Origin: Trueperaceae bacterium
Lineage (GTDB): Bacteria; Deinococcota; Deinococci; Deinococcales; Trueperaceae
Length of the DNA stretch: 32,000 nucleotides
Direction of reading: 5' to 3'
Assembly (NCBI GenBank): GCA_965215565.1
Contig: CBDCDZ010000004.1
Coordinates: 3,655,185-3,687,184, forward strand
The notes under the pieces were generated by a model. The model ran no database searches and was not told the origin of the DNA. It was given only the letters and a program-made list of their open reading frames with translations. This document shows positions 4,796-29,936 of the stretch, one piece after another (within the stretch, counting starts at the first letter, position 1; each line of letters starts with the position of its first letter). The position numbers were made by a program, and so were the translations under genes.

Positions 4796-4808
4796 TAGTA
4801 TCTGAACG

Positions 4809-5585
4809 TCAGGCGGCGATAGGTAGCGCCCGGGTGAGTGCGCCGAGCATCTCTTCAGCGCTGCCGTAGCGCTCGCAAGGGTTGTGTAAGAGCGCCTTTT
4901 TGATGATAGGTGCTAGAGGCGCAGCCTCGTTTGGCAACGCGCCGAGATGCACAGTTGGGTCGCCCATGAGAAAGCGAAACACGTCTTTGCCGTAGGGGGG
5001 ACCGCCCGTCACCATGTGGTAGAGCACCGCGCCTACCGCGTAGAGGTCACTTCTTGGATCGCGCCGCTCGCCCGCGAACTGCTCGGGCGGCATGTAGTTG
5101 GGCGTCCCCAAAGACACGCCCTGCTGGGTGATCGCCGCGAGCGCTAAGTCTTTGGCGAAGCCGAAGTCTGTCAGGAGTGCCTTCTCGCCGTTGATGAGGA
5201 TATTCGACGGCTTGACGTCGCAGTGAATAACGTCACTCTTGTGGGCGTAGGCGAGCGCTTGGAGCACGTCCGTAGCAATCTTGATGCTCCGCTCTAAACT
5301 GAGCGTGCCTTGATTCAGCGCTTTCTCGAGCGACACGCCGGGGCAGTACGCAAAGATGAGGCTCATATCTTGCACAGCTAGGAGGGGCACGATGTTGTCG
5401 TGCTCCAAAAAGGTGACCACCGCAGCTTCGCGCCCTAATCGGTTGGCGAGCGAGGGCGAACCCCCTCTAAGCTCTTTAACCACCACGAGTTTATCGTGCC
5501 AGCGGGCTAACTCGACCCTCATAGGTCCGTGGTCCGAAAGTACGCGAATGGGAGTAAACATTGCCATAAGGTTATCATGTTTCAC
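4809..5585 (-). CDS. Stand-alone Ser/Thr protein kinase catalytic domain
   Basis: Kinase motifs are present: VVVKEL (Lys), HCDVKPSNIL, DFG and PPEQ. There is no sensor or TM domain. It starts 3 nt after the stop of the upstream MBL gene, so the two look co-transcribed. Confidence 0.85.
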   Translation of the reverse strand: MKHDNLMAMFTPIRVLSDHGPMRVELARWHDKLVVVKELRGGSPSLANRLGREAAVVTFLEHDNIVPLLAVQDMSLIFAYCPGVSLEKALNQGTLSLERSIKIATDVLQALAYAHKSDVIHCDVKPSNILINGEKALLTDFGFAKDLALAAITQQGVSLGTPNYMPPEQFAGERRDPRSDLYAVGAVLYHMVTGGPPYGKDVFRFLMGDPTVHLGALPNEAAPLAPIIKKALLHNPCERYGSAEEMLGALTRALPIAA

Positions 5586-6378: not shown

Positions 6379-8161
6379 GTGAGTGTCGTACCGCCTATCG
6401 ACAAATTTGTTTTGGGGGACCAATTATACTTCCTCGACTGGATAGGCGGTGTGACGCACAATCCAGGAAAGTCCAGCGAGCCCCTCATGCAGGTATTCAC
6501 GAGCCCGGTCATAACGAACAGCGGCGGCATGTCTTACGGAAAGCAGTTCGCTATGAACGTCGGCGTCGGTTTACTCCCTTACATGAAGATCGGCTCCCTC
6601 TGGTATGAAGGCAACCGTATCGGCCTGTTTCCTCTCCGCAAAGTCACCTTTAAGTTAAGAATCGCATCCGACAACCCCATCGTCTCGACGCTTCAGGAAG
6701 CTCTGGGAGATGAGCCCGGTGCGAGTAGGGGCGGGCGTACAGTACTCGGCACCGCTTTGTTCGACACGATAAGTCGAACGAACTGCTTGGTTTACCGTTA
6801 TGACACGACGCGCAGAAAGAAGAGCATACTCAGTAGCATCATCTTCCCGGTCATGGAAATTGTCAGGTTCTACTACGCGACCGGGACGAGGCTTAGCAAC
6901 GCCCTCTTCACGGGCGAGGTGCAAGGGGAGGACTTGTCGCGACTGTGCAGTGAGGGTTCGGGTCTCTATGACGACGTCGCCATCGTCAAGCTGAAGTCCG
7001 AATACGCCGACAGCTCTGCTTACATCATCGGCAGATGGCTGGGGTCGCCTCACGCCAGGGCGCAAGCGATTAAAATCTACCAGACTGTCCGCAAGGGAAC
7101 CATCAACCGGCGGGCCGACCCTTCGAGCGATCTGCACGTGTCGCCGGAAGTCACCTTTCCCTTCCTCGGACCCACCGATCTGAGTGTCCAAGGCACTTAC
7201 CTTACCCGAGAGAACGGCGAGCGACATTTCCTGGTCAGTCGTCTCCTACGCTGCACTGCACCTTTTCCCTACGAGGCGGTCACAGTCGAGCGTCCCCTCG
7301 GCAAGATCGAAGAGACGTTAGAAGGAGAAGAGGGTAATCCCATCTACAGGCGACCCTTTACTCGGAAGCGCAAACCTAAAGGCAGAATCAAACATCACAA
7401 CGAACCGAACCTCGGACTCCGAACCCTGAGCATCGACCTTTACGAAGAGAACTTCCCCGACTTAGAGAACAAACCCCTCCACAAGACCTACGGGGAAGCC
7501 TATATCCACCGCACCAAGAAGCGGAAAGAGGGCGAGGAAGGGGACGATTTCTCGAGCGGCTCCGGCGTCCACGGCGGCTCGGGTCCTAGAGGTATCAGGC
7601 TCAACACCGATCCTGCGGACGAGCCTCCTAAAGCGCAGAAAAAGCGTGCCACGCCGGTGCAGTTGGCGTTCACTAAAGACGCGCTGGACACGCTCAGGGA
7701 CGCATATAAAGTTCCCTATACGCTCCTCGATGCCGACGGTCAGGAACTATCAGAGGGGGAAGGATTCGCACTTCTCCCTAGCGAACTTCGGCTGCTGAAC
7801 GACTGGGCGGAGTACGAGGTGGGTGAGGAACAACACGCGCCACGTCCTCATCGCCGAACTCGAGCACGAATCTGGGCTTTTCACCATCTTCGAGGTCGAG
7901 CGGCGACTGAGCGGCGAGAGCGGTCGCTACCGGATGCTCATCGCCCATCTGATCACGATGGGAAGTTTGCGGTGGAATGTCAAAGCGATGCTCCAGGTCT
8001 TTGCAGAGGAGCAAAGGGTGTTCCTACCCGAAAAGAAAGCGTTGCAGGCGCTCAAGCCCAAATATTTCAATCATAAGATCGGAGAGACTGCGCCGGAATT
8101 TGCCAAGAGAGTATTCGACTACATGGAGGCACTAGCGAAGCGATCCCGTAAAGAAGGGTGA
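6379..8161 (+). pseudogene. Large (about 590 aa equivalent) protein broken by a +1 frameshift near 7799-7830; tentatively TnsE-like
   Basis: Frame 1 (6379-) reads plausibly to ...LLNDWAEYEVG, then turns into an Arg/Pro/His-rich tail. Frame 2 opens at 7799 and gives a plausible C-terminus (RHVLIAELEHESGLFTIFEVERR...NHKIGE...) ending at 8161. The central segment is K/R/E-rich and looks disordered. The TnsE resemblance comes from memory of sequence pattern only. Confidence 0.35.
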
Positions 8162-8219: not shown

Positions 8220-8501
8220 ATGGCAAACATCTCGAAAGCCGACCTCGTAGACACGCTCGCCGGGGAAACCGAACTCAACAAGAGCCAGGCGAAAGACGCT
8301 TTGGAAGCGGTTCTGAGCACCATCACATCGCACCTCGAGAAAGAGGACAAGGTCACTTTAACCGGCTTCGGCACCTTTGAGGTGAGAGAGCGCAACGCCA
8401 GAGAAGGGGTCAAGCCGGGTACGAGCGAGAAGATTCAGATACCCGCGACTAAATACCCGGCGTTCAAAGCAGGAAAGAACCTCAAGGATCGCGTGAAGTA
8501 G
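8220..8501 (+). CDS. hup: HU/IHF-family nucleoid-associated DNA-binding protein
   Basis: 93 aa. It has the typical HU layout: MANISKADLV..., GFGTFEVRERNAREGVKPGT and IPATKYPAFKAGK. A GGGGGA RBS lies upstream. Confidence 0.9.
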   Translation: MANISKADLVDTLAGETELNKSQAKDALEAVLSTITSHLEKEDKVTLTGFGTFEVRERNAREGVKPGTSEKIQIPATKYPAFKAGKNLKDRVK

Positions 8502-8534
8502 GCATTTATCTCGTTCAGCGCTTAAACTGTAAAG

Positions 8535-8801
8535 GTGACCAAGCCTTCCCTCTTCGACCCTGCCGTGCTCGATCAGTTGGAAGGCTTGAACGAGCGCTAC
8601 GCCAAGCTGAGCGCTCGCATTGAAGAGCTGGAGGCCAGGATCGACGCGGGCGTAGCGTTCGACCTGCCGCCCGACACCGCGCAACTCGGCAGCTTGGTAG
8701 ACACGCGACGTAGAGTCGAAGTTACGAAGTTTTCCGAAGGAAAGGAGGCTGTAGCGTTGCTCGAGACGCTCCTCAACGAGTTGAGAGAAGCAGCCCCTTA
8801 G
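8535..8801 (+). CDS. Hypothetical small coiled-coil protein
   Basis: 88-aa ORF with a GTG start, plausible composition and no overlap with neighbours. I recognise no motif. Confidence 0.4.
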   Translation: MTKPSLFDPAVLDQLEGLNERYAKLSARIEELEARIDAGVAFDLPPDTAQLGSLVDTRRRVEVTKFSEGKEAVALLETLLNELREAAP

Positions 8802-8860
8802 TTCTGCTGCCACCTTCCCCAATCGCATCCTATCTAATCGTCTAGTTTAGGGAGGTTCTC

Positions 8861-9764: not shown

Positions 9765-10823
9765 CTATTGGAAGTTGAAAGAATCAGAGGTATTACAGGT
9801 GCCGGTTCTACCTCTATCCGACGCCGTGTGAGTCGTCGACTCCGAGCCGGACACTTCGATGTTCAAGCCTGCAACCCAGTAAGGGATTCTAGGCAGCGCC
9901 GAACCGTAGCGGCTGCTGGTGTAAGTGCCTGTCCGACTGCCCACCTCTTTAACAACGGTTCCTGAAACTGTAACGTTTTTCCGAACGCTGAGGCTCAAGT
10001 CTCCTTTGTTGGGCGTGTATATCCGACCCACATTTCCGGTTCCGGCGAATAAGCCGTATACCGAGGGGTTTCCTGGTAACTTGATCCAGGTGAATTTTGC
10101 CGCGCCGCTTGCGCCCACAACACGTCTGGCCCGGAGCCGTTTTTTGTAGTAGGTATCTACGCAGCTATCGGCGGCTAGCTCAGCTTTGGGGATCAGATAT
10201 TCTTTGATGAAGGAAATCAACCCTTGCGACTCCAAAACCGACGTACTCTCTACTGCGGCTGTAGAGCGCTCGATAGGGCTGTAGGCGACACCTAAATCCC
10301 TATTTGCCTGGGTGCTGAGAGACTCAGGCGTAGCAACAGCGCTCAGGTCGACCTGGGATAGAGAATCGACTGGGATAGCAACAATGTTATCGTCAGTGAC
10401 AAGGTAAACGATGTCCGCGATCTGTACTAGACCCTTCTCGTTTAGAATACTTTGAAGGTAAGGGTCGTGAATGATGGTCCGGGGTAAGAGGTCTTGATCA
10501 GCGAGAGATTCACGCTCCTCTGCACTGAGTTGAGCGAAATCCTCCTCCATAGAGAGGTTTTGCTGCTCAATTGTGTGTCTTTCCGAAGTGTAGCCCATGC
10601 GTTGCTCGAGACTATTCAAGAACGCTTCATCCTGATTGATGAGGCTACCCCAATAGGTTGCGAAGGCGTCGAAATCCGGAAATGTAAGGCGACCGTCGAC
10701 AAGCGACGCTTGAGCGGCAGAGTCGTATTCCTCTGGGGTTTGTACTGAGTTTTGCGTACCACACGCAGTTAAACCCACTGTTACAGACAGTAGTGCGACT
10801 AGTAGTAAGGATGTGCTTTTCAT
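9765..10823 (-). CDS. Lipoprotein of unknown function
   Basis: I prefer the internal ATG at 10823, which is preceded by AGGAGA. The signal peptide carries a lipobox (MKSTSLLLVALLSVTVGLTAC). GC content is lower than in the flanks. Confidence 0.65.
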   Translation of the reverse strand: MKSTSLLLVALLSVTVGLTACGTQNSVQTPEEYDSAAQASLVDGRLTFPDFDAFATYWGSLINQDEAFLNSLEQRMGYTSERHTIEQQNLSMEEDFAQLSAEERESLADQDLLPRTIIHDPYLQSILNEKGLVQIADIVYLVTDDNIVAIPVDSLSQVDLSAVATPESLSTQANRDLGVAYSPIERSTAAVESTSVLESQGLISFIKEYLIPKAELAADSCVDTYYKKRLRARRVVGASGAAKFTWIKLPGNPSVYGLFAGTGNVGRIYTPNKGDLSLSVRKNVTVSGTVVKEVGSRTGTYTSSRYGSALPRIPYWVAGLNIEVSGSESTTHTASDRGRTGTCNTSDSFNFQ

Positions 10824-11253
10824 AATTATCTCCTGTTTGAAAGAACTCGGGTCAGTCAAAGCTGAATCCAACAGACGGGACTTTGGAAACTCAGGGGTGT
10901 GAGTGCCGAATGTTAGATACTCGAACGAATCATGCTTACGGTGCTAAACGTAGCGTTGCTCCAGGCGCTTTGCAGCAAGGTGTCGAAATTTAGGTAGGAT
11001 GTGCCCGCTCTACCTATGCAGCTATGTACCGTGAAGAAAGCTTCCCTGCACCTACCTCCCTTTCTTTAGATTTAGGCTGTAAGCGTTACTAGTAACTTCA
11101 GCGATCAGTTGATCCACTAACAACCTTGACCTAAATCAAAAGCCTTCGAGGGTTCCCGGACGGAGCCACAAATCCTGGAACCTATTTGGAACCAAATACA
11201 AGTAAGGCTGTAGGCAACTTCGTTGAACTTGCGAAGCCGACAAGTAAGAAAGG

Positions 11254-14488: not shown

Positions 14489-15461
14489 CTAAGCGGCTAG
14501 GCTCACCTCCTGAGTCTCTTTTCGCTGCTGGGATAGTTCAAAGGTGTCAGGCGTCTCATAGCCGAGCGAGCTGTGCAGCCGCTCGCGGTTGTAGTAGACC
14601 TCGATATATTCGAACACCGCGACGCGGGCGTCATCGCGTGTGGCAAAGCGCTCAATGGGATAAACGAGTTCGCGTTTTAGTGTCGCCCAAAAGCTTTCAA
14701 TGATGGCATTGTCGAAGCAGGCTCCTTTGCCTGTAAAGCTCGGCAGCATCTTGTGCGCTTCGAGTTCGCGCTGATAAGCGTAGGAGGTGTATTGAGAACC
14801 CCTGTCGCCTAGGTGAAGGCTAAGAGCCTTTGAGCTTCGCTCTAACCTTGTGATGAATCAAACCGGGCTGGGGCTTGCGCCGCGTCGTGGCTGAGCATAG
14901 GGCTTGCAGCACGAGGTCAGTCTTCATATTGTCACTCATGGCGTAGCCCACAACGCGCTTAGAGAAGCCGTCAATGACGCCCGCTAGATAAAGCCAGCCC
15001 TCGGCGGTCGGCAGATAGGTAATGTCAACATGCCATACCTGATTGATCGCTGTTGGGCGTGGTTGTTCCAGCAACAGGTTCTGGGTCTCGAGATCACAGC
15101 GCTCATACTTAGTGCGGTGTTTCTTGTGACTCACAGCGTAGAGCCCTTCACGACGCATAAGACGTTTGACTCTGCCTAGCGAACACGAAACCTGCTGCTT
15201 CTTGAGTTCGGCGTGGACACGGGGGCTGCCATATCTGCCCTTATTCTTCTCGAATACCGCTTTGATCTTCTCCAACAGCTCGGCGTTGCGCTTTTCGCAT
15301 TTGCTCGGCTCCCGCTGCTGACGAGCCCGCCAGTGATAGTAGCTGCTCCTAGCCACGCCCAAGACCTTGCACAGCGCCGAGACGGAGAACTCGCTCTGGT
15401 GCGCCTCGATGAACGCGCACTTTAGGTTGTCTGTTTCGCAAAGTAAATGGCGGCCTTTTTT
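14489..15461 (-). pseudogene. IS3-family transposase OrfB (DDE/integrase core), interrupted by a 40-bp insertion
   Basis: It is split into tracked ORFs 14820-15362 and 14489-14749. Deleting 14809-14848 in silico restores the conserved GLIHHSDRGSQYTS motif in one frame. Confidence 0.85.
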
Positions 15462-15745
15462 ACGATCGCCAACTCTGTTTCAAGTCGCTTCACCTCCGCC
15501 TGGAGCCGTTTCAGTTCGGCTTCGTCAGCGGTCGGTTGTGCTCTTTTATGACCCATCACGAGTCGTCCCTCGCGGTATTGTCTACGCCACTTATGGATGT
15601 TCGACTCAGCAATACCCAAGCTCCGTGCCGCCTCGGTGATGCCGTAGCCCTTTTTCTCTACCAGTTCCACCGCATCGATCTTAAACTCCATTGGATACTG
15701 CCGAACCACCCTCTTGCCTTCTGCCATCGTCTTCCTCCTTAGCAA
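15422..15745 (-). CDS. IS3-family transposase OrfA (HTH)
   Basis: Typical IS3 OrfA sequence: YPMEFKIDAVELVEKKGYGITEAARSLGIAESNIHKWRRQY followed by a leucine-zipper-like C-terminus. Confidence 0.9.
   Translation of the reverse strand: MLRRKTMAEGKRVVRQYPMEFKIDAVELVEKKGYGITEAARSLGIAESNIHKWRRQYREGRLVMGHKRAQPTADEAELKRLQAEVKRLETELAIVKKAAIYFAKQTT
15455..15461 (-). promoter_or_regulatory. Programmed -1 frameshift heptamer AAAAAAG of the IS3 element
   Basis: The minus strand reads GTA AAA AAG GCC. The -1 frame continues as ...FIEAHQSEFSVSALCKVLGVARSSYYHW (OrfB). Confidence 0.75.
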
Positions 15746-16396: not shown

Positions 16397-16690
16397 ATGT
16401 CTATAATTGTAAACAAAAGTATGATGCTAAAGGTGAAAAAGTCGAGTAAGCGCACCTCTTACGAACGGGCATTCTTTCGAGCAGTAGGTGCACGCATAGA
16501 GCTGTTCAGGTTGCGGCGCGGGCTGAGCTTGGAGGAAGTTGCTGCCCATACAGTGCATCCGCCCGAGTGGCTGAAGGGGCTCGAGGCGGGAGTGGAGGAA
16601 CCGAGGCTCGACGACCTATTCGGCATCGCCAAGGCGTTAGGCACCGACCCCAGCGAACTCGTGAGGGTGGAGCCGAAGGTGTTTTCTTGA
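16397..16690 (+). CDS. XRE/Cro-C1-family helix-turn-helix regulator
   Basis: HTH_3 pattern: IELFRLRRGLSLEEVAAHT...LKGLEAG...PRLDDLFGIAKALG. The start is ambiguous: a TATAAT at 16402-16407 would favour ATG 16421. Confidence 0.7.
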   Translation: MSIIVNKSMMLKVKKSSKRTSYERAFFRAVGARIELFRLRRGLSLEEVAAHTVHPPEWLKGLEAGVEEPRLDDLFGIAKALGTDPSELVRVEPKVFS

Positions 16691-16740: not shown

Positions 16741-16980
16741 ATGTCAGGACGCCGCAAGGACCCGGAATACCAGGCTTACAACCGCAAGGTCGGGGAGAGG
16801 ATCAAGGAGCTGAGGCGGGATAAGAACCTCTCTCAGGAGGAGTTTGCTGCCGAGGTCGGACTCAGCCGCTCGTACCTGAGTTTGCTGGAGACGGCTAAGC
16901 AGGACCCGTCGCTCTCGACGCTCTTTAGGGTGGCGAAGGTTTTGGGGTTGAGTGTGAGTGAGTTGCTCGAGGTGGAGTAG
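16741..16980 (+). CDS. XRE/Cro-C1-family helix-turn-helix regulator
   Basis: Canonical pattern: IKELRRDKNLSQEEFAAEVGLSRSYLSLLETAKQDPSLSTLFRVAKVLG. Confidence 0.85.
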   Translation: MSGRRKDPEYQAYNRKVGERIKELRRDKNLSQEEFAAEVGLSRSYLSLLETAKQDPSLSTLFRVAKVLGLSVSELLEVE

Positions 16981-16996
16981 CGTCACCAGAAACTCT

Positions 16997-18664
16997 TCAG
17001 TAATCTATATTCATAGCTGCACTATCGGCGATTTCGTCTGCTGCTAAAGATAGAGCGTGCCTAAGTGCTTCCTGATTTTCATTCTTGAGCAAGCTGAATC
17101 GCGATTGACTCTGTTCGGGCAAGAGGGTTACGCCCGCCTTTTGAAGAAGTCCTCTATACGCAGGATTAGCCACGAATCCTATCATGTTGGAATAATCGTG
17201 CTTATACTTTTCTATGAAATACATAAGCCTTTCGTAAACCCGCGCTTGAGCTGTTTTATCGCGTTTAGATAAGAGGAAGTCGTAATTCAAAACAGCGGGC
17301 TCTTTCACGTAACGCAGAGGAACAGGTCCGTAAAGCCCGGATAAGAAAACAATGTCGATATCGTTCTCTAGTCCCTGTAAACTTTTCACGACTCGCTTAT
17401 ATGACGATGAGTCGGTGTACGGTTTAGCCTGAGAACAGGTGAGAATTAGACAGATAGGTTTCTTGGCCTTAAAACGCCTTTTACGTATATCGAAGGCAGT
17501 AGGGTCATTTCTGACTGGCTTCACCTCCACTGCTTCCGGTAGAGGCTCGCCCTCAAGCAAGGCGCGGAGCTGGGCTCTTGGACGAGCTAGTTCAACGAGA
17601 TAGTCTTCCAGTACGCCTTTCTCCCGAGCAGCAATTGCCTTATCAAGGATTTGCATATCCATTTCAAGATTGTGAAGTGCAGTCGCAGCATAAACGACAC
17701 TCTTACGTCCCCGCTTAACCTCACCTTTTTTGGCTCGCATTACGAAAACATCTTCATGCACATCGCGCGAGTAGCAGACTTGACATGTACATGGATAGGA
17801 CAAAAGTTCCCAAAGACGTCGTTCTTTGTAATTGGGGGTGATGTATTTAAGTGAGCGAGCTTTCTGAATATAACCACTAGTGTCGAAAGTAGTCGCCCCT
17901 GCATGTAAGAGGAAAGGGACGAGAAGTCCGGTGACACCAAAAACATGCATCGGTAACTCTCCTGCAGCGCCACGTACAGCGCGGACATAACGGACGATCT
18001 CCTGCTGTCTCCCCGCCTTTCTTAACGGAACTATGGAACCTAGCCCTACCCCGTGAACGATCTGCATGAGATTTTCCTTGTCGAGACGTTCAAGCACCTC
18101 CTGCGTGAAGATGGCAGCTTGCTCGGGTGTATTCCCGTGAACAGGAACTACAAGATTTATATCTTTATCCGGTCTCTCAGAAAGAATTCTTGCGCAGTAA
18201 AGTGCATTTTGAAGTGTCTTGTTCAGTCGGTTACGCGACTCTTCTTCAGTTAATCCAGGCGGTATCGGGTAATCTAAAGACACAATCCTCGAAGCGCCTA
18301 AAGCTAGCTGGAGTTCGAGAATCTTTTCCTGCATGTTATGTTCAAAGAAGCCGTAGCGATCCAATCCAGCGGGTGGACCCTGCATGAACACGTAACCACC
18401 TGAGTCAGCTAAAATGTGTGCATGATAATCTAAGTCGAAATTGCCATTGTAGTGTTTACGCAGAGGTTTAGACAGCCACATCTCGAGTTGTTTTGGTAGT
18501 ATGGCACCGTAGTTCAAAAAGTGTAGTGCTTGAACCATCACGGGTATATTACGCCTCAATAAACCTTGTTCCATGCCATGCAAGAGTTGCTTATACATGC
18601 CGCCGCCGTTTGGCGTTGTACCTGTCATCATAGCCGTAACTGGGTATAGGATAGAATTGTGCAC
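16997..18664 (-). CDS. TGT-superfamily (DpdA-like) transglycosylase fused to a C-terminal ArcS-like (DUF5591-type) domain
   Basis: TGT hallmarks are in the canonical order: DSGG (residues 87-90), GVGLGSIVPL, HVFGVTG...TFDTSGY (Asp261), and the zinc motif C292-x-C294-xx-C297 with H331-N. Residues 400-555 carry C410-SQA-KPY-TD-S419, which matches the ArcS PC-x3-KPY-x2-S signature as I recall it. Confidence 0.8.
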   Translation of the reverse strand: MHNSILYPVTAMMTGTTPNGGGMYKQLLHGMEQGLLRRNIPVMVQALHFLNYGAILPKQLEMWLSKPLRKHYNGNFDLDYHAHILADSGGYVFMQGPPAGLDRYGFFEHNMQEKILELQLALGASRIVSLDYPIPPGLTEEESRNRLNKTLQNALYCARILSERPDKDINLVVPVHGNTPEQAAIFTQEVLERLDKENLMQIVHGVGLGSIVPLRKAGRQQEIVRYVRAVRGAAGELPMHVFGVTGLLVPFLLHAGATTFDTSGYIQKARSLKYITPNYKERRLWELLSYPCTCQVCYSRDVHEDVFVMRAKKGEVKRGRKSVVYAATALHNLEMDMQILDKAIAAREKGVLEDYLVELARPRAQLRALLEGEPLPEAVEVKPVRNDPTAFDIRKRRFKAKKPICLILTCSQAKPYTDSSSYKRVVKSLQGLENDIDIVFLSGLYGPVPLRYVKEPAVLNYDFLLSKRDKTAQARVYERLMYFIEKYKHDYSNMIGFVANPAYRGLLQKAGVTLLPEQSQSRFSLLKNENQEALRHALSLAADEIADSAAMNIDY

Positions 18665-18704
18665 AGGAAGACCTTACCGTACGAAGAGCGATAAAGCAAG
18701 ACCT

Positions 18705-19151
18705 TCAAGTAGGAAGCAGGAATTCGTACCGCAACATTTTGCTTATATTCCTATGCGGGTTATCTACGATAAGAACGGTTTCAGCGTTGCGGTAAAAGCT
18801 GCCCCAGAGGAAGTTTGCTGACCCCACTAGAGCGATTTCATCAGTGATCAAACCCTTGCTGTGCAAGTGAGGAACAATGTGGTGTTTATCAGGCGTAAAG
18901 CGCGATAAAAGTGCATTGAGCCTCCGGTCCGGTTCTCTCGTATAGATTGAGGTTCGATGCCCCTGTCCTTGTAGATAAAGTAGCAAGGTGCTCAGTCGTT
19001 GCGGTCCCGATTTATTGACAGGATAAGGTAGCTGTAGGGGTAGATCGTCCATCCAAGGGCTGACAATTGCGATGTCACCCTCGCTACTCAACATAATCTG
19101 AGGAACCAACCACGGCAGCTTCTTAGAGGCTAAGAACACGGTTAGGTGCAC
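18705..19151 (-). CDS. PLD-superfamily (single HKD, Nuc-like) nuclease
   Basis: HSKGLITDEIALVGSANF gives an HxK(x4)D(x5)GSxN motif. The size of about 148 aa would require a dimer. The 5' end overlaps the helicase stop, so the exact start is uncertain (19151, 19139 or 19094). Confidence 0.8.
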   Translation of the reverse strand: MHLTVFLASKKLPWLVPQIMLSSEGDIAIVSPWMDDLPLQLPYPVNKSGPQRLSTLLLYLQGQGHRTSIYTREPDRRLNALLSRFTPDKHHIVPHLHSKGLITDEIALVGSANFLWGSFYRNAETVLIVDNPHRNISKMLRYEFLLPT

Positions 19152-22100
19152 CGCTCTCGAGAACCATCGGTAAGTTTTTCCCCTCTCTAGCCCTTTCGGA
19201 AAGTTCTTTGTTGCTCATCTCTATTATCAGCCTCGATAGTATTGACTCAGCGAGTAACCTTGAAGGCTCCTCGTCACCGATCTGCTGAGTACCGACACAA
19301 ACGGGGCAGCCATCAGTTTCTAAACAGGTGTATTGGAATGGCTCCCCACTCGCTCGTTGGTTGATCAACCGGGTAAGTTCGTTTGAAACTTCGACGAAAA
19401 TATCCTCTGGTAGCGTACTCTGGGGATCGGGTAGGTTGAGGCGTGCCACCGTACGCGTACGTAATAGTTGGGCGTCTATACCATCGCGCAATGCCTCTTC
19501 AGCTAAACCGACAGGGCATAGCACAACACGTAGCAGTTCTTGGTAAACCTGAAGTGCATCAGCCTCAAGTGCTTTCTGGAAAACTTCGATAAGACCCGCG
19601 CCCCCCTCAAAAACTTCCCACACCGAAACGTTATTGTCGCCGATCGCAGACTCTAAATCTTCACGGTGCACGCCGACGACACTTGCTACTGCCCGATGAA
19701 GCAGCTCTCGAGCGGTGGCAAGTGCCACTCCTCGGAGTTGCTGCGGCTGCGCTCGTCCCTCACTAAGCTCGTTGAGCAAGTCATCGAGCTGCCATCCAAG
19801 TGCTTGCGTGTCTATCGTATACACCATTGGCTCAAGGTAACGGACTTCAAAGCGGTCTGGATCGCCGCTAGCCCTGAAATACTCTGCGTCCGCGTCTCTA
19901 TCGTTTGAGTTACTCTTCAGATAACGATGTGACTCAACGTCAGAACCTAAAACTCTGGTCCTCCCTTGTCCCTCAAATACACGCAGTCGCTCGCTAATAC
20001 ACGTTCCCGTATGATTTTCGAAACGCCTCTCTAAGTAGGGCTGGGCGTAGAGCTTTCGAAATTCAAGTTGCCCGCCACATTCACAAACCCGCTTACTAAG
20101 ACTGTGAACCTTGTAGCATTGCTTACAAAATTTAACGACTTGGCGTCCTTGACGGTCCGTACGGACGCCGCGTAAAGGTACAATCTGAGGACGTACACCC
20201 CCTTCTACACTTAAACCCTCAATGGGTAAACGCACCCTGACCCTGCTTCCGTCAACCCAATCAGGGTGGTGTTCCGTATCGAGGGTTGCCAAAGTCGTGT
20301 CTCCATAATGACGATAAGTCAGTCTATACGGTAAATAAAGACTCGCTAAGTTGGAAACTTGCTCCTCTATGTAGTCAGAGCTGCCGCTAGAGTAACGCTT
20401 TTCGAAACGCAAAGGCTTTACGGTTTGAAAGTAAGATGAGGGTAGGAGAGAGCTGATGGAGACCGGACAGTTGTTCTCTACGCAGGTGTGGCTAGGTTCG
20501 CTTACTGCGTCGACGCCAGCGTGTAAATAGTAAAGCGAACCTAGCGTTACTTTTATGTCTTGTGGAGACGATTGGAAGGACCACCCTTTATTCCAGTGCT
20601 CCTTTAACGTGAAAAAGAAGTTGTGGAGCCGCTCGTAGTCAGAGATGCTTCCTTCGCCTGTTCGTCTTAGGTTATAGAGGTGAGCCCTAAGGTTAGTAAG
20701 CAAGGTCACTACTTCTGCGAGATGCTCGGCACGTTCAGGTTCATCAACGAGAATCTGGCTTACTTGGCTGATAAGACTATTGGTAGTAAGACGCTGTGTC
20801 GGCTGTGCTCCTCCAGCGAGGTAGTTGTCGATCTGCTCTCGGAATGCATCTAAGTCATTCATCAACTCGGTGGGAAAAGCGCTTCGAAGTTGAGTCAAAT
20901 GGCGTCTCAAATCGAGGATAGGTCCGGTTCTCTCTAATTCTCTATCAGCCCAGCCAATCAAAGCATCTTTGAATCCAGAAAGATCGAAGTAGCCTGCAAA
21001 TCTGTCTCTAAAATTGTCAAAGTCTTCCTGATACTTAGCACTCAATGTTGGGCAGGCTTCGAGCTGGTCGAGGATGTAACGTGCTATGGCCTTAGGTGGA
21101 AAACTTTCGTTTTGTTGGTAGTACTTGGCATATTGACTACGGTCCCGCTCCAGTCTCTCGTGTAATTGTTGAATAACCGCATTGTCCGTATTGAGGGGGA
21201 TGTCGAAAACGCCATTTAGTAACCGTTGACGTCTAAAAAGTGCGAAGTTATCCGGAGCGTCGTTACCCAATATAAGGATGCTATGACTTAGATCGCCTTG
21301 CTTTCGTCCAGCGCGTCCGCGCCTCTGAGTAAAACCTGCTAGAGAACGCGGTGGTCTGTATTGGACAACAGCTTTGATCTGTTCATTGTCCACGCCTACC
21401 TCCAGTGTAGGCGAAGCGACAAGAAGATTGGGACTAAGATTTTTACCCGTCTTCGATGTGACTTGAGCTACTGAGAGAGGCTCTTCACTAACTACTTCTG
21501 CTGGTTCATAGCAATCTTTGCCACCATGTATTCCTCTCCAGCACTCGCCCGCACTATAGATATCGCAGCGCATAGGTTCCTTGCGAGGGCAGGGTTCATT
21601 ATTCCCATTTAACGGGTAAGAAATATCTTCGACTACCGTGCGGAATGCCCAAAGCCCTTGATTGTGTTCAGCGTCTCGAAGCTGATTAAAAAAGCGCCCC
21701 GTCTGATCGAGAGAATCCGCAAAAATGATAACCTTCTCTTGAGGGGTCAAAAAAGCGTGCCCGAGTGCCATAGCGCACTGGATGAGTAAGGAAGACGGAG
21801 CAGGGCTTGACTCATCAGTTGGCGTCTGAAGCGTGACAAACCCTTCTATTCCTCCCAACTCTTGCTCTGCTTCGTAGGCACTTGAAAGAGCCTCGTGTGC
21901 TCGGACTCCCTGGTCACTCCCGTAAAATAATCGGCTCGCGAAACGTATAGGGTCCGAAATGGTTGCGCTGGCAGCAATGAGCGTGAGTTCTTTGCCAACA
22001 AGTTTCTTCAGCCGATTGATGAGCTGATGAACGTGGACGCCGTAAAGCGAATCGTACAGATGCGCCTCGTCGATAACAATTCCGCTGAGTCCTGTAAGGA

Positions 22101-23010
22101 ACGGTTCAAACTCCGGCCGAAGGTAGAAGGAATCGAGCGACTCGGCTGTCGTTACCATTATCGGTGGGTTTGCCTTGATATGCCCTTCACGCGATATTGA
22201 CACCGCAAAAGTTTTTTTGCAATCTGGGCACTCAAGTTCTCGGTAGGGTTGCTCTCCTTTTGGAAGGAGTCGCAATTTGACCTTCGCACCACAGACGGGA
22301 CATTCTTCTAGCGATTGAAATTCTCCTGATTCGAAGAGGGGAGAGCCATCATCGTCATATTGATTATCGACCGTTAATTGGTCAGAACGCTTGACGGAGC
22401 CGAACTGAATTCCTACCGGAATGACATGACCTTGCTGTCGCGCGAAATAGGCTGCGCTCAACACCCGCGCAAGTTGATCCTCAAGCAGGGCGATGCGAGG
22501 ATAGACTAAAATGAAACGCTGGGTGGGGTTCTTCAAAAGACTGTAGATAAGAGGAAGTACGAAAACTTCCGTTTTTCCGGCTCCCGTAGGTGCCGTGATG
22601 ACGAGTCCAGAGCGATTCTCCACTGATCTCAAAACTTCAGCCCAACCGTCGACCTGAAATCTACTAAATTCTGGGTACGGGCTCAGTTTGGCGACAGCTT
22701 CCTGTTCGGTCGTAGGAAAAGTGCTTACGCTGCGAATAGGTCTTGTGCGAGGTATGGCGTCAAAACGGAGGCGTCCAACAAGAACATTGCCGCTTTCGCT
22801 CGCTCCAAAGCGCTGTTTTACCGTCTCCAAAATCCGCAGTAGCTCAAGCGTTCGTGGCACCTTGACACTAGGGGAAAGGGCGACCATATGTGCATCTGTA
22901 CTGATAGCATTAGAACGCCGCGCCACAACCGCCGCATCTGGCGTTGTGTTGTTGCGATTTACTTCTGTGCTAATTCGCTCCAATTCTGCGAGTAGTTCAG
23001 GCAGCATCAA
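19123..23010 (-). CDS. Large superfamily-2 DEAH helicase with inserted zinc ribbons and a DUF1998-like Cys-rich C-terminus
   Basis: Helicase motifs: APTGAGKT (140-147), DEAH (314-317), SAT (348-350) and QRRGRAGR (562-569). A CxxC...CxxC ribbon (C237, C240, C261, C264) is inserted in the RecA1 domain and a 4-Cys cluster lies at 474-500. A CKQC...CEC ribbon and the DGCPVC motif near the C-terminus (about 1229-1238) fit the DUF1998/MZB signature as I recall it. A GAGG RBS precedes the ATGATG start. Confidence 0.8.
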   Translation of the reverse strand: MMLPELLAELERISTEVNRNNTTPDAAVVARRSNAISTDAHMVALSPSVKVPRTLELLRILETVKQRFGASESGNVLVGRLRFDAIPRTRPIRSVSTFPTTEQEAVAKLSPYPEFSRFQVDGWAEVLRSVENRSGLVITAPTGAGKTEVFVLPLIYSLLKNPTQRFILVYPRIALLEDQLARVLSAAYFARQQGHVIPVGIQFGSVKRSDQLTVDNQYDDDGSPLFESGEFQSLEECPVCGAKVKLRLLPKGEQPYRELECPDCKKTFAVSISREGHIKANPPIMVTTAESLDSFYLRPEFEPFLTGLSGIVIDEAHLYDSLYGVHVHQLINRLKKLVGKELTLIAASATISDPIRFASRLFYGSDQGVRAHEALSSAYEAEQELGGIEGFVTLQTPTDESSPAPSSLLIQCAMALGHAFLTPQEKVIIFADSLDQTGRFFNQLRDAEHNQGLWAFRTVVEDISYPLNGNNEPCPRKEPMRCDIYSAGECWRGIHGGKDCYEPAEVVSEEPLSVAQVTSKTGKNLSPNLLVASPTLEVGVDNEQIKAVVQYRPPRSLAGFTQRRGRAGRKQGDLSHSILILGNDAPDNFALFRRQRLLNGVFDIPLNTDNAVIQQLHERLERDRSQYAKYYQQNESFPPKAIARYILDQLEACPTLSAKYQEDFDNFRDRFAGYFDLSGFKDALIGWADRELERTGPILDLRRHLTQLRSAFPTELMNDLDAFREQIDNYLAGGAQPTQRLTTNSLISQVSQILVDEPERAEHLAEVVTLLTNLRAHLYNLRRTGEGSISDYERLHNFFFTLKEHWNKGWSFQSSPQDIKVTLGSLYYLHAGVDAVSEPSHTCVENNCPVSISSLLPSSYFQTVKPLRFEKRYSSGSSDYIEEQVSNLASLYLPYRLTYRHYGDTTLATLDTEHHPDWVDGSRVRVRLPIEGLSVEGGVRPQIVPLRGVRTDRQGRQVVKFCKQCYKVHSLSKRVCECGGQLEFRKLYAQPYLERRFENHTGTCISERLRVFEGQGRTRVLGSDVESHRYLKSNSNDRDADAEYFRASGDPDRFEVRYLEPMVYTIDTQALGWQLDDLLNELSEGRAQPQQLRGVALATARELLHRAVASVVGVHREDLESAIGDNNVSVWEVFEGGAGLIEVFQKALEADALQVYQELLRVVLCPVGLAEEALRDGIDAQLLRTRTVARLNLPDPQSTLPEDIFVEVSNELTRLINQRASGEPFQYTCLETDGCPVCVGTQQIGDEEPSRLLAESILSRLIIEMSNKELSERAREGKNLPMVLESGAPNRVLSL

Positions 23011-23449
23011 CGTCGACCTCTACTCAACTCTGTATTCAGTTGCTTCGAAGCGGTGCTCACTTCATCGGAAGTCTTTGACATTTTATTGAACTCCTCTAGC
23101 ACTCCAGCGCGTTCGCTCTTTGCGCTCCCCAAGCAGAGATTGTGGAGAAATAGTCTGAGAAAGGTTACTCCACATTCCCTTTTCTATCTGCTAGCTCTTT
23201 CCCCTTCCTTCAGGAACTCATCGGTAAAAATTCACAAGAACTAAATGGAAGCGTAACACGACGTAACGACCTGATGCCATAGTGGATTAAGGGCGTGAGG
23301 AACTTCACAACTACCGTTAGAAATGGCCCTAATCTTCCGCTGAACCAAAGGCATTACGCACAGCATCTTGAGACTAGCTTCTTATATTCGAAATAGGTTA
23401 GCGTTATGAAGCTTACGGCGACTTCAAAGTTTGAGAGAGTGAGATAAGA

Positions 23450-24061
23450 GTGCGAAGAGACGTGTTGATAACGGTTTTAGTAGCCATCTATATCGCTACT
23501 GAGTTAGTTTCGAACGCCACAGCGGGCCGCCTCGTGCAGCTAGGCGCATTTGTCTTCCCTGGAGCGATTTTTCTCTACTCCCTTACCTTTACACTGCGAG
23601 ATGCGGTGCATACAGCGGGCGGTTGGCGCGTCGCCAAAGCGCTCATTTGGGCTGGCTTCATCGCGAACGCTATTCTCGCGCTTTACGGGTTGTCCATTAA
23701 CGCATTTCCTAAACCAGTCTGGTTCGATGACTCAGCTTACCAAGCAGTGTTCGGAACGACGGCAAGGGTAGTCGCCGCTTCTCTGGTTGCTTATCTCGCG
23801 TCCACCTGGCTCGACGCTCTCATCTTTGAACGTTTCAAGCGCTCGATAGTCAACCGCGTGCTTGCCTCAAATGTCGTTTCTACGTCTGTCGATTCTGTCC
23901 TCTTTATTACTATTGCATTCGCCGGCACAGGTGCCCCGCTGCTCAACCTCATTGTCGGACAGATAGTCGTTAAGATGATCGTAAGCACCCTACTCATCCC
24001 TGTCGTATATTGGGTGCGGGACACTTTACGTGAACAAGGGTTGGCGATGGAGGGATACTAG
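23450..24061 (+). CDS. yhhQ: Queuosine-precursor (preQ0/preQ1) transporter, YhhQ/VUT family
   Basis: About 6 TM helices, with the typical motifs ATELVSN...AGRLVQLG, FPGAIFLYSLTFTLRD and SNVVSTSVDSVLF. The start is GTG. Confidence 0.8.
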   Translation: MRRDVLITVLVAIYIATELVSNATAGRLVQLGAFVFPGAIFLYSLTFTLRDAVHTAGGWRVAKALIWAGFIANAILALYGLSINAFPKPVWFDDSAYQAVFGTTARVVAASLVAYLASTWLDALIFERFKRSIVNRVLASNVVSTSVDSVLFITIAFAGTGAPLLNLIVGQIVVKMIVSTLLIPVVYWVRDTLREQGLAMEGY

Positions 24062-24757
24062 ATGTCAAGAGCAGTCGTTCTACTCTCGGGTGGACTCGAC
24101 TCCGCTACAGCAGCTGCACAGGCTATCGCAGACGGCTATGATCTCATGGCCCTTTCCTTCCGATATGGTCAACGTCACGAACGGGAACTCGAAGCTGCTA
24201 AAGCGGTAGCCGAAGCGCTGCACATTCAAGAGCACTTCGTTAGCGACGTCAACTTGGCACAGTGGGGTGGGTCGTCTCTCACCGATGAAGATATAGACGT
24301 GCCTACAGGAGGGAGCGACGCGAATGCCATCCCCTCGACCTACGTTCCCGGACGCAACACCGTCTTCATTGCGATTGCGCTCTCGCTCGCCGAGGCGAAA
24401 AACGCTGAAGCCATATACCTCGGTATCAACGCCGTGGACTACTCGGGTTATCCTGATTGTCGACCTGAGTACTTAGAAGCGTTCAAAAATCTCGCTGAGC
24501 TTTCGAGCAAAGCAGGACTTGAAGGTAATGCGCCTAGGCTTGTTGCCCCACTCGTTATGGACTCGAAGGCAGACATCGTCAGGCGTGCCCTCAGGCTAGG
24601 TGTGCCCATCGAGAGTACATGGTCCTGCTATCAAGGCATGGAGGAGCCGTGTGGAGTCTGCGATTCCTGTCGTATCCGTGATCAGGCTCTTATTAAAGCA
24701 GGGAAAGCAGACTTAGTCGGCTCCTTCAATTTATCTCGCGCTGTCCCGAGTTGCTAG
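24062..24757 (+). CDS. queC: 7-cyano-7-deazaguanine (preQ0) synthase
   Basis: PP-loop [22 protein letters not shown], and the C-terminal zinc cluster CYQG...CGVCDSC. The ATG follows the yhhQ stop directly (TAGATG). Confidence 0.9.
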
Positions 24758-25457
24758 CCCCTGGTTCATTGTCCGCTCCAATAAGGTTCTTATAGCTTTC
24801 GGCAAAAAGTGAAAGCGCAAATATAGTTTCATCAATAACTTCAATTGTCAGGTTGCTTGCTTTCTGAATGGAATCGAATTGAGGTCTCCAACCATTTGCT
24901 TTACTAATAAGTGTAAGTTTAGAAATTAGTTCGGGGTTCATTGTTTCTTTAGTAATTTTCCAGTCATCATGGGGATCATGATCAACTATGTAGCTATATA
25001 ACGGAGTTATTCCCCCACCTCCCGGTCGATCAAAACCGTAGAAGGTATATAGCGATGTTTCCCTGCCTTCAGGTAATGTGTAGAGACAGTTTCGCGCTCT
25101 TTCCTCTAACCATTTAGCCATCCAAGGATTAGAGCCATGTTCGCGCTCACTAGCAACCTTGATCAATTCCCTCAGAATACTTTGGAAGTCTTTGAGGACC
25201 CGCTGAACTAAAGAACAATAATTTAGCAGATGCGTAGCAACGGGGTAGTAGACAGTTTCTTGGATCAAATACCACGCAGCTATGTCTCCTCCCAGAACGC
25301 CATCTTCGTCAACGAACGTTTTAGCATGTCGCTCAATCATCACCGAATACATCTGTTCTAACGCCGACGCACGAGGGTACCAATCTTCATGACCTAGTTC
25401 TCTAATGTCACTAAATACAGAATTATCTGACTCGTCAGGGATCATTTCGTCTCCCAA
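24726..25457 (-). CDS. Hypothetical protein (lowest-GC gene in the window)
   Basis: 243-aa uninterrupted ORF in about 40% GC DNA. Its 3' end overlaps the queC 3' end by 32 nt. No motif recognised. Confidence 0.5.
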
Positions 25458-28721: not shown

Positions 28722-29936
28722 CTACTCGATGATTTCTAGCACGTCCTTAGGCTCAATCTTGCCCTTAAACCAGATCACCTTGGCGCGGGTCTTGCTCACG
28801 TCCACACCCGCACCCTCGAGGTTGAGCCGTTCGGAGACCGCCAAGACCAGGTCGTCCCTGCCCGACTTCTCCACCTGCATAAACTTTTTGCGCAGATACT
28901 CAGGACGCCAGTAGCCCACGATCTCGAAGAGAAAACTGCGTCCATCGGGGTGGACCAGGCGGAAGTCTGGGATCATCACACTGCCGGGGATGGGGACGAG
29001 GTCGACTTCGCGCTCCAAGCGCCACTCGGTCTGTTGGGTGTCCCAGCGCTTGGACAGGGCTTGCTCGAGGATGGAGTCGTAGACCTTCCCCTTCTTGTAG
29101 TGGGAGACCAAGCCACTGTTGGGCTCGAGTGTATACCTCGCTTCTTCGGGCACACCGTCGTAGGTCTGCTTAGGATTCAAGACTGCCGTCATCTGCCAGC
29201 GGGTGACATGTAAAAGGGCGGGGAGGAACTTGGCCAAGTCCACACCATAGCGCGTGGAGGCTTTGAACAAACTATTCGGACCGTCCACTGTAATGGTGAA
29301 GCCGTGCTCAGGGTCGCCCTCAATATAGGCGAGTAAGCGAAAGAGCTTCAGGTAGCGGAAGAGCTGCTTGTACTCGCCGGGGTCGTTGCGATACGCCGTT
29401 AGGACGAGCTCGCTGGCGCGGTAGAGGACGCCCTGCGCTTGCGAGAGGTTGTAGCGGTGGATGAGGGCGTCAGGGGTAGGGGACTCGAAGCTCACCATGA
29501 TCTGGTTCTCCGCTAGGTCGGCATAGAGTCCGGCTCTGACTTGACTGGGTTCGACGTGGGTCTCGAGTTCTCGGCTCAGGGCGTCGGCGACTTCGCTGTG
29601 AATAGCCGTCTCCACCGCTTCGTCCGGTGCTTGCCTTGCAGCCAAAGCGAAGGCCCGCTCCCTAAGCTCTTCCGGTTCTAAGGGGCTGACCGTCTCGAAC
29701 TCAGCAAAGCCGGAGGTAAGGAGATGGGCCAACCCTCGTTTGACCCGGTAGTCCGTCTCTTCCCCCTCGAGCAGTTGCAACTCGGTATCGAGCACGTGAC
29801 GCGGCTTATTCAAGCAAGCACAGAAGACCTGAATGAGTTCTTGCGCCGTCGCCAGGTTCCCTTTACTCAGCTCGAGCCACTTGGGGACGATCTCCTCACC
29901 GTTGTAGCGGTGCATCAACAGCTCGCTCGGCAGCAC
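28722..29936 (-). CDS. DUF790-family (Bax1-like) nuclease partner of XPB
   Basis: The N-terminus LLMHRYNGEEIVPKWL... and the C-terminal IPDFRL...FEIVGYWRPEYLRKK (PD-(D/E)xK-like) fit DUF790. The GTG start overlaps the XPB stop by 1 nt. Confidence 0.7.
   Translation of the reverse strand: MLPSELLMHRYNGEEIVPKWLELSKGNLATAQELIQVFCACLNKPRHVLDTELQLLEGEETDYRVKRGLAHLLTSGFAEFETVSPLEPEELRERAFALAARQAPDEAVETAIHSEVADALSRELETHVEPSQVRAGLYADLAENQIMVSFESPTPDALIHRYNLSQAQGVLYRASELVLTAYRNDPGEYKQLFRYLKLFRLLAYIEGDPEHGFTITVDGPNSLFKASTRYGVDLAKFLPALLHVTRWQMTAVLNPKQTYDGVPEEARYTLEPNSGLVSHYKKGKVYDSILEQALSKRWDTQQTEWRLEREVDLVPIPGSVMIPDFRLVHPDGRSFLFEIVGYWRPEYLRKKFMQVEKSGRDDLVLAVSERLNLEGAGVDVSKTRAKVIWFKGKIEPKDVLEIIE

Follow-up and report, generated by a model that had tools for sequence, protein, structure and literature searches.

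A two-domain transglycosylase-DUF5591 protein as a candidate bifunctional 7-deazaguanine DNA-modification enzyme in a low-GC island of a Trueperaceae genome

The 32,000-nucleotide stretch analysed here (hereafter the window; Trueperaceae bacterium, assembly GCA_965215565.1, contig CBDCDZ010000004.1, positions 3,655,185 to 3,687,184 of the forward strand) carries, at its positions 16997..18664 on the minus strand, a two-domain gene in which a tRNA-guanine transglycosylase (TGT) domain is joined to a DUF5591 domain of the ArcS-C1 type. We judge it probable, if well short of certain, that its product is a bifunctional enzyme modifying DNA with 7-deazaguanines, and that it serves as the self-marking half of a compact island of the Dpd-like restriction-modification kind, gained by horizontal transfer. 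The architecture, conservation, homologies and linkages presented below were computed, and from them we infer the DNA substrate, the product and the restriction logic.

The open reading frame (ORF) pointed out in an earlier interpretation based on the letters alone (the sequence-only reading) codes for 555 aa, from a GTG start to a stop codon at 16997-16999, and every catalytic and zinc-binding residue named there is present in the translation. An N-terminal TGT TIM-barrel domain (residues 1-372, 17549..18664) is connected by an inter-domain linker (residues 373-395, 17480..17548) to a C-terminal DUF5591/ArcS-C1-type domain (residues 396-555, 17000..17479), all on the minus strand. Both domains, whose presence in one protein the sequence-only reading had proposed, score above their Pfam cutoffs: TGT (PF01702) with 46.2 bits against 26.3 over residues 80-361, and DUF5591 (PF17884) with 27.3 bits against 26 over residues 397-509, which is barely over the cutoff for a single sequence. 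This marginal match is not a chance one, since PF17884 is found precomputed in all 90 of the 90 homolog clusters and since both the profile match to AF0587 and the fold match to its structure, 2q07 (see below), agree with it. The AlphaFold2 model of the whole protein has a predicted local distance difference test score (pLDDT) of 93.8 and a predicted template modelling score of 0.90, with pLDDT values of 72-76 in the linker and a C-terminal end consisting of one long helix; the C domain modelled separately reaches a pLDDT of 95.8. Neither a PUA nor a TGT_C2 domain was detected in the protein in Pfam and NCBIfam scans, the lack of a PUA domain having already been remarked on. A Shine-Dalgarno-like AAGG lies 7 nt upstream of the GTG at 18664. 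An identical protein in public records (P0001) has 544 aa and starts at Met12, the upstream part corresponding to 18629-18664 of the window (minus strand). The residues upstream of Met12 are conserved (P8 in at least 90% of the family) and form a beta-strand at 5-10 in the model; together with the AAGG before the GTG, this indicates that the deposited protein probably begins 11 codons too late.

The protein is a member of a conserved and widely distributed family. A word-indexed search gave 90 homolog clusters, nearly all full length (~540-720 aa) and all but one carrying the TGT domain; linker length varies across the family, homologs of 600-750 aa having longer ones. A profile search of 1.84 billion representatives returned 152 proteins at E<=1e-30, and the relatives that come next, outside the family (~1e-33 to 1e-36), are genuine arcTGTs scoring above the TgtA cutoff. 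Carriers are found among Chloroflexota, Cyanobacteria, Poribacteria (many), Acidobacteria/Blastocatellia, Deinococcales, Symbiobacteriaceae, Kuenenia, haloarchaea (on megaplasmids as well) and Thermoplasmata; cultured ones include Thermosporothrix hazakensis (L011), Allocoleopsis franciscana (L001) and Thermogemmatispora carboxidivorans (L018). One homolog lies on an element resembling an integrative and conjugative element (ICE; locus L006) and another on a 185-kb phage-like contig (L008); the window protein itself has no tblastn match in 50,697 phage genome records, which are those of cultured phages. Public annotation names members of the family either 'tRNA-guanine transglycosylase' or 'DUF5591 domain-containing protein'.

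Conservation was counted in an 80-sequence family alignment (A1), and it extends to the active-site residues of both halves. In the N domain the DSGG segment (residues 87-90, 18395-18406; D87 at 18404-18406), D131 (18272-18274), H176-G177 (18134-18139) and the zinc ligand H331 (17672-17674), all on the minus strand, are occupied by invariant residues (D87, S88, G89, G90, D131, H176, G177 and H331, 80/80 each), while D261 (17882-17884) is found in 79/80 members and the three zinc cysteines C292, C294 and C297 of the segment CTCQVC (residues 292-297, 17774-17791) in 78-79/80. The C domain carries the ArcS-type motif TCSQAKPYTDSSSY, of the form TC-x3-KPY-x2-S-x2-Y (residues 409-422, 17399-17440), as well as the segment SGLYGPVP (17318-17341), both again on the minus strand. 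Its invariant columns (80/80) are C410, K414, P415, Y416, S442, G443, G446, V448, Y461, R479 and Y503. The sequence-only reading had given the ArcS signature as PC-x3-KPY-x2-S-x2-H, which is indeed the published form (PMC10516641), and the two deviations it pointed out, Pro to Thr and His to Tyr, are real. Across the family the motif Pro occurs in 75/80 sequences, the Cys and the Lys-Pro-Tyr in 80/80 and S419 in 70/80, and position 422 is His in 32/80, Phe in 22/80 and Tyr in 14/80. Thr409 of the window protein is thus seldom seen at this position, and members of the family can do without the motif His. Base exchange and nitrile tailoring by a single polypeptide would fit with the residue conservation in both halves. 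Two traits are unusual: each half looks catalytically competent from its sequence, and the C2 and PUA domains are lost.

The N domain displays the features of the TGT superfamily, namely a TIM barrel, a catalytic Asp pair, a base-recognising Asp and a CxCxxC...H zinc site, and scores 38.1 bits with the superfamily model TIGR00449 of NCBIfam, under the cutoff of 47.6. The family profile matches the Pyrococcus horikoshii arcTGT (1iq8) at 6.4e-31, eukaryotic and bacterial TGTs at 1e-9 to 1e-6 and the Salmonella DpdA (7ui4) at 1e-3. Structure modelling, which the sequence-only reading had called for, gives the same picture, 1iq8 being the best Foldseek match of the model (2.7e-18), followed by bacterial TGTs (~1e-13). 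The TgtA model TIGR00432 is matched with 83.4 bits, which does not reach its equivalog cutoff of 350; true arcTGTs score 460-580. The active site of the Salmonella DpdA comprises Asp95, Asp130, His181-Gly182 and Asp256 along with a Zn site, His181-Gly182 being the base-recognition position (PMC10164549), and this set is present here as D87, D131, H176-G177 and D261 with the Zn ligands. In a multiple alignment, the family, its haloarchaeal relatives and DpdA2 of Vibrio phage nt-1 all have His-Gly at 176-177, whereas Gln-Gly is found there in five true arcTGTs. Overall, then, the barrel resembles arcTGT, but at this position it is DpdA-like. The phage DpdA2, which has no phmmer match in the PDB, is weakly related to the N domain (hhalign probability 63%), the HGNT segment being common to both. 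The label 'DpdA-like' given in the sequence-only reading is accordingly apt for the His-Gly pair and the active-site set, but not for family membership, which we rejected: neither the DpdA model of NCBIfam (NF041059) nor that of PADLOC matches (E<=1), 7ui4 is as distant as stated above, and DpdB is missing.

Homology of the C domain to DUF5591/ArcS, on which the sequence-only reading had made its proposal depend, is apparent in profile searches (the Pfam, NCBIfam, 2q07 and ArcS2 matches). The ArcS-like protein AF0587 (PDB 2q07) is matched by the family profile at 2.7e-10 and by the C domain alone at 6.7e-11, and 2q07 is the sole significant PDB fold match of the C-domain model (Foldseek, 6.8e-5). 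With the ArcS model NF040592 the protein scores 43.1 bits, not reaching the equivalog cutoff of 440; the better-scoring of the two matching stretches places residues 396-513 on model positions 287-404, the C1 core. The closest tested relative is the DUF5591 protein ArcS2 of phage nt-1 (R9TEI9), which the C-domain model matches among viral models at 1.1e-5 with a TM-score of 0.67 (Foldseek) and which hhalign relates to the C domain with a probability of 86% (E 5.5e-6). Expressed together in Escherichia coli, ArcS2 and DpdA2 of nt-1 bring about dG+ in plasmid DNA (PMC10516641). Like the phage ArcS2, the window protein has a DUF5591 core with no PUA, encoded with a transglycosylase domain and with an adjacent QueC, though here the core is fused instead of standing alone. 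Weak Foldseek matches of the C-domain model (4e-4 to 3e-3) are phage proteins annotated as YaaA and DUF6884. Sequence homology between DUF5591 and DUF6884 is not significant (hhalign probability 0.8%); in this non-significant pairing a Cys that closes the first strand is aligned. DpdC is reported to be of the DUF328/YaaA family (PMC12839542). It might be that DUF5591, DUF6884 and the DpdC family (DUF328) are nitrile-tailoring domains with a distant common origin.

The word 'fusion', used in the sequence-only reading, is correct insofar as both domains are in one polypeptide, but it is misleading as to origin. In the multiple alignment the C1 domain of arcTGT itself aligns with the window C domain, so that an N domain followed by C1 is the ancestral layout of arcTGT and ArcS and not a new fusion. 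In the arcTGT C1 the motif is without its Cys and Tyr (reading, for example, LPETKIKPF). The N domain of ArcS, for its part, is reported by Phillips et al. 2010 to lack the catalytic aspartates. The window protein appears to join an intact transglycosylase site with an ArcS-type C1, and one possibility is that a barrel and a C1 that are both active represent a preserved ancestral bifunctional state from which arcTGT and ArcS specialised later.

The whole system is contained in a block (16997..25457) of 48.9% GC, against 57.5% and 59.6% in its flanks, with remnants of an IS3-family transposase (an HTH_Tnp_1 ORF and a truncated rve ORF, 14820-15745, minus strand) at its left edge, and this block looks like a horizontally acquired island. 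Upstream of the TGT-DUF5591 gene and on the same strand are genes for a 148-aa DpdK-like PLD-family nuclease (18705..19151; Pfam PLDc_2, HKD motif HSKGLITD at residue 97) and for a 1295-aa DpdJ-like DEAH helicase (19123..23010; GAGKT at residue 143, DEAH at 314). The TGT-DUF5591 gene is indeed the last of a co-directional array, as had been noticed before, in the order helicase, PLD, TGT, the 3' end of the helicase gene overlapping the PLD gene by 29 nt and the PLD and TGT genes being 40 nt apart. The helicase matches the DpdJ models of PADLOC at 5.1e-53 and of NCBIfam at 1.8e-49 (168.4 bits, residues 98-572 only), the nuclease those of DpdK at 3.3e-10 and 2.7e-9 (36.8 bits), respectively. Judging from these scores, the two are relatives, not orthologs, of DpdJ and DpdK. 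Divergent from this operon, on the plus strand, are genes coding for a YhhQ/Vut_1 queuosine-precursor (preQ0/preQ1) transporter (23450..24061; Pfam Vut_1 4.2e-34; TIGR00697 80.6 bits against 50.95) and, beginning at the base after the transporter ORF, for QueC, the 7-cyano-7-deazaguanine (preQ0) synthase (24062..24757; Pfam 5.2e-73; TIGR00364 229 bits against 150.3), which obtains just 21.9 bits on the QatC model of NCBIfam. Two XRE-type helix-turn-helix (HTH) genes on the plus strand converge on the 3' end of the TGT-DUF5591 gene; the 79-aa product of the nearer one (16741..16980; Pfam HTH_3 1.3e-17, PADLOC Control_protein 7.9e-15) resembles restriction-modification controller (C) proteins, and the other is 97 aa long (16397..16690; Pfam HTH_31 and HTH_3).

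Similar linkages recur in other genomes. Ninety related loci were examined; dereplication leaves 38 that are not of the Poribacteria type, and the Poribacteria-type ones (about 48) are treated apart. One of three modules is found within 6 kb of the TGT-DUF5591 gene in 24 of these 38 loci. A DpdJ-like helicase is encoded in 12 dereplicated loci, the window among them, and is accompanied by a PLD gene in 8; these loci include L005, L012 (Deinococcales), L013 (Thermoflexus), L024, L026, L027 and L067, and they often contain YhhQ, QueC and a nucleoside deoxyribosyltransferase-like gene. GmrSD_N and HEPN proteins are the partners in 9 cyanobacterial loci, the GmrSD_N protein matching NsnA (Menshen) of PADLOC at 1.2e-58, and NurA and HerA in 4 loci (L003, L006, L011 and L015). 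In L025 the helicase is found together with GmrSD_N and HEPN. Spacing is operon-like, with 12 nt in L006, 44 nt in L001 and overall gaps of 12-94 nt or overlaps, and close relatives differ in their partner: L011, whose protein is 45% identical to that of the window, has NurA and HerA, L012 (43%) the helicase and PLD genes. QueC, QueD or YhhQ is nearby in 14 of the 38 loci, and in L007, also outside the Poribacteria type, an N6/N4 DNA methylase gene overlaps the TGT gene by 19 nt. Among the neighbours of the 48 Poribacteria-type loci, the recurrent DNA-relevant ones are an N6/N4 DNA methylase (12) and QueD (10). That the cyanobacterial GmrSD_N protein could be an analogue of DpdB is speculative; it has no NCBIfam DpdB match, and PADLOC calls it NsnA.

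The helicase-nuclease pair can also be followed into haloarchaea. A Haladaptatus plasmid carries a helicase (31% identity, 2e-53) and a PLD protein (25%, 1e-12) homologous to the window pair, with the same 29-nt overlap, after which come genes for DUF6884, for a TGT of 352 aa and for a GHKL ATPase. This plasmid, from Haladaptatus sp. YSMS36 (L009 and L095), has three TGT paralogs in one region (46-66 kb of the record), two of them convergent TGT-DUF5591 genes (654 and 673 aa) and one the 352-aa TGT with the GHKL/MutL-like ATPase, along with two giant DEAD/DEAH helicases, a 1493-aa AAA protein and the PLD gene. The DUF6884 gene lies between the PLD and TGT genes (L095:3605-4066), and in L066, L068 and L071 a 153-aa DUF6884 gene lies between two TGT genes. 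Split versions of the protein exist as well, a TGT gene being followed by a stand-alone DUF5591 gene. L093:3103-8609, on a contig of 2.2 Mb, has TGT and DUF5591 as separate neighbouring genes (393 and 202 aa, respectively), ~1.8 kb downstream of an N6/N4 DNA methylase gene and two tandem genes for MutH-family endonucleases. An apparently decaying copy of the system is seen in L094:7516-14196 (a Coleofasciculus metagenome-assembled genome), with a 190-aa stand-alone DUF5591 gene after a 159-aa ORF with no Pfam hit at the place expected for the TGT gene, a helicase split into ORFs of 379 and 901 aa, and then intact GmrSD_N and HEPN genes. Finally, a nucleoside 2-deoxyribosyltransferase-like gene (PF05014) recurs beside TGT-DUF5591 systems of different types (L006:15591-16019, L008:6847-7302, and after the PLD gene in L026 and L027), in 9 loci of the neighbour clustering and 3 of the 38 dereplicated loci. 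It has no PADLOC or NCBIfam match, and its product may salvage or release deazaguanine bases.

Going by the identities of the genes, QueC would make preQ0 and YhhQ would import it. The conserved residues of the TGT barrel suggest that it would then exchange a guanine of DNA for preQ0 by the standard double displacement, D261 acting as the nucleophile and D87 as the general acid/base (a mechanism shown for DpdA and TGTs; PMC10164549), with D131 and H176 reading the Watson-Crick edge and the CxCxxC...H zinc site holding the fold. By homology to ArcS and the phage ArcS2, the C1 domain would attack the installed nitrile, probably through C410 with K414 and Y416, yielding a formamidine (dG+) or else an amine or amino-acid adduct. 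The closeness of three invariant residues, Cys, Lys and Tyr, points to an activation of the thioimide type, as in QueF and QueF-L (PMC5485725). Candidate products are dG+, as with the nt-1 ArcS2, a lysine-type adduct or an amide; the lysine route, which the sequence-only reading had brought up, has been reported for the ArcS of Thermococcus kodakarensis (PMC11298593). By analogy with ArcS, tailoring would render the reversible base exchange irreversible: Fujita et al. found that, after the action of ArcS on preQ0, ArcTGT can no longer undo the exchange (PMC11298593), which offers a rationale for having both activities on one protein. From the gene context, the DpdJ-like helicase and the DpdK-like PLD nuclease would attack unmarked DNA, and the small HTH proteins would control expression. 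DNA is favoured over tRNA as the substrate because the C2 and PUA domains are absent, QueC and YhhQ are adjacent, His-Gly is present and the linkage to helicase or nuclease genes is recurrent, being found across phyla and also in phage-like and ICE-like contigs. We put forward more tentatively, as something that may well not hold in full, that the protein is a single-polypeptide writer with no need of DpdB, which would install preQ0 in chromosomal DNA and convert it to dG+ or a lysine-type adduct, a self-mark that would be read by interchangeable modules.

Several observations weigh against this proposal. The N domain is far nearer in sequence to arcTGT, a tRNA enzyme, than to DpdA, none of whose models it matches. 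In the window protein Thr replaces the Pro of the motif and Tyr the His, and its chemistry may differ from that of ArcS, given that the family does not conserve this His. The helicase and the nuclease are far under the equivalog cutoffs for DpdJ (168.4 versus 800 bits) and DpdK (36.8 versus 100), and Salmonella DpdA needs the ATPase DpdB (PMC10164549), yet neither a DpdB-like gene nor a RaSEA-type radical SAM partner was found in the island in Pfam, NCBIfam and PADLOC scans. The neighbours of the Poribacteria-type genes are mostly metabolic, and many of these loci have no detectable nuclease partner.

As an alternative, the N domain might insert preQ0 into DNA while the C domain either makes dADG by hydrolysing the nitrile to an amide, the task of DpdC, or is a non-catalytic module for DNA binding or dimerisation, leaving dPreQ0 as the final product. 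The change of the motif His to Tyr in the window protein and its presence in only 32/80 members of the family are in keeping with this, as are the possibility raised by Hutinet et al. that the phage ArcS is an amidohydrolase and the composition of nt-1 DNA, with mostly dPreQ0, little dG+ and some dADG (PMC6884629), and the faint resemblance of the C-domain model to YaaA and DUF6884 proteins, considered with the reported affiliation of DpdC to DUF328/YaaA (PMC12839542). The residues invariant throughout the C domain, from C410 to Y503, favour catalysis over a scaffold role, the nt-1 ArcS2 yields dG+, and the hhalign comparison of the C domain with a DUF6884 protein is not significant; such a division of labour seems rather unlikely. 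An RNA enzyme, that is, a bacterial or plasmid-borne arcTGT/ArcS hybrid making archaeosine-like bases in tRNA or other RNA, with nuclease neighbours due to defence-island crowding, would agree with true arcTGTs being the best sequence relatives of the N domain, with the public annotation of the family as tRNA-guanine transglycosylase and with the acceptance of minimal preQ0 nucleosides by the T. kodakarensis ArcS (PMC11298593), by which a PUA domain is not strictly needed for ArcS chemistry. The tRNA-binding C2 and PUA domains are absent, however, the base-recognition pair is that of DpdA and DpdA2 instead of the Gln-Gly of arcTGT, the TgtA score is 83 bits against a cutoff of 350, and the tight linkage (12-94 nt or overlaps) to three nuclease/ATPase modules, to DNA methylases and to ICE-like and phage-like contigs holds across phyla, all of which make an RNA substrate quite improbable.

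It is more improbable still that the TGT-like protein and QueC conjugate a deazaguanine to protein, as in type IV CBASS, where the QueC-like Cap9 and the TGT-like Cap10 conjugate a deazaguanine base to protein, or that they act as an effector on invading DNA. The family profile does have a weak local match to Cap10 (9ntn; 3.8e-5, profile positions 240-293), and QueC-family proteins do have roles in defence (PMC13279940). The QueC of the window, however, passes the biosynthetic equivalog model (229 against 150 bits) and scores 21.9 on QatC, no cyclase or CD-NTase gene was found in the island in Pfam scans, the full catalytic set of nucleic-acid TGTs is conserved in the family, and a preQ0 transporter is co-encoded with the TGT gene. 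Mere co-location in a defence island shares the probability that remains. Modification of DNA by both domains of the TGT-DUF5591 protein is the interpretation that we favour.

If so, the system would be close in kind to two that are already known, the Dpd system and the phage pair DpdA2 and ArcS2, of which the single-protein arcTGT-like/ArcS-C1 family is a variant. With the nt-1 pair it shares the proposed activities, a TGT-superfamily DNA transglycosylase (the N domain being remotely alike) and a DUF5591 core with no PUA, as well as genes of the QueC pathway; the activities are on one polypeptide here and in two genes in the phage, and the window gene is cellular and lies beside restriction-type genes, whereas the nt-1 pair is a phage anti-restriction device. 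The Dpd system of Salmonella Montevideo consists of DpdA/B/C for modification and DpdD-K for restriction. The island follows a similar 7-deazaguanine restriction-modification logic, with preQ0 from the queuosine pathway and DpdJ-like and DpdK-like genes, but it has no DpdA-family protein, DpdB, DpdC or DpdD-I and just two restriction genes; the tailoring module is ArcS-C1 (DUF5591) instead of DpdC, and the zinc spacing is CxCx2Cx33H in place of the CxCx2Cx22H of the Dpd system. As for arcTGT (TgtA) and ArcS, the layout of N barrel and C1 is the same, C1 bearing the ArcS signature C-x3-KPY-x2-S, but the window protein has no C2 or PUA, has a His for Gln169 of arcTGT and has no RaSEA partner in the island. 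A TGT homolog is also the putative DNA self-marking module, near HerA-type translocases, of the BREX-related BRC system (HerA/FtsK, GNAT and TGT), described in 2026 (PMC12839542). That system pairs TGT with GNAT, PglZ, BrxB/C-like and STAND proteins, none of which is in the window island, and DUF5591 is not described there. In the open-access literature we found no description of a DpdA-ArcS or TGT-DUF5591 fusion in cellular genomes, or of modular restriction partners. Specialists may already know TGT-DUF5591 proteins, since Hutinet et al. in 2019 noted that the phage ArcS clusters with 'bacterial and archaeal homologs'.

Some other features of the window deserve mention. A 243-aa ORF (24726-25457, minus strand) lies inside the island and runs antisense to the 3'-terminal 32 nt of QueC; it has no Pfam hit or other family match and no homolog in the fetched loci that were searched, and was therefore not counted in the system. 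ORFs of 565 aa (6379-8076, plus strand), 368 aa (9765-10871, minus strand) and 156 aa (8358-8828, minus strand) have no Pfam hit either. Searches for tRNA genes and for Rfam families (such as a preQ1 riboswitch) gave no match, and promoter and terminator patterns are not in excess. An esterase gene (PF00756; 25974-26979, minus strand) at the island's right edge is apparently interrupted, a 248-aa ORF being followed after ~30 nt by a 75-aa ORF like its C-terminal end, through either a frameshift or a sequencing error. Further on, an XPB-type helicase with XPB_DRD is followed by a DUF790 protein (PF05626, 475.7 bits) at 28722-31381 (minus strand), which resembles the XPB-Bax1 helicase-nuclease pair; in the closest homolog locus (L005) an XPB gene likewise flanks the island. 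The stretch from 1050 to 5585 codes for a PP2C phosphatase, a 664-aa Ser/Thr kinase with NHL/beta-propeller repeats and, on the other strand, a further kinase; these are common signalling genes that show no apparent tie to the TGT system.

Tailored 7-deazaguanines in DNA, dG+ included, have been documented mainly in phages, and the one characterised cellular system, Dpd, uses three proteins (DpdA, DpdB and DpdC) and produces dPreQ0 and dADG. A single-polypeptide writer, if this is what the TGT-DUF5591 protein proves to be, would widen the chemistry of cellular DNA self-marks and would imply that a self-mark so far undescribed is present in at least six bacterial phyla and two archaeal lineages, with at least three interchangeable readers (DpdJ/K-like, NsnA-like DUF262 with HEPN, and NurA with HerA). 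It would also provide a compact means of editing DNA with deazaguanines at specific sites. The association of one writer gene with three unrelated nuclease/ATPase modules would offer a test, set up by nature, of how such modules come to recognise a hypermodified base.

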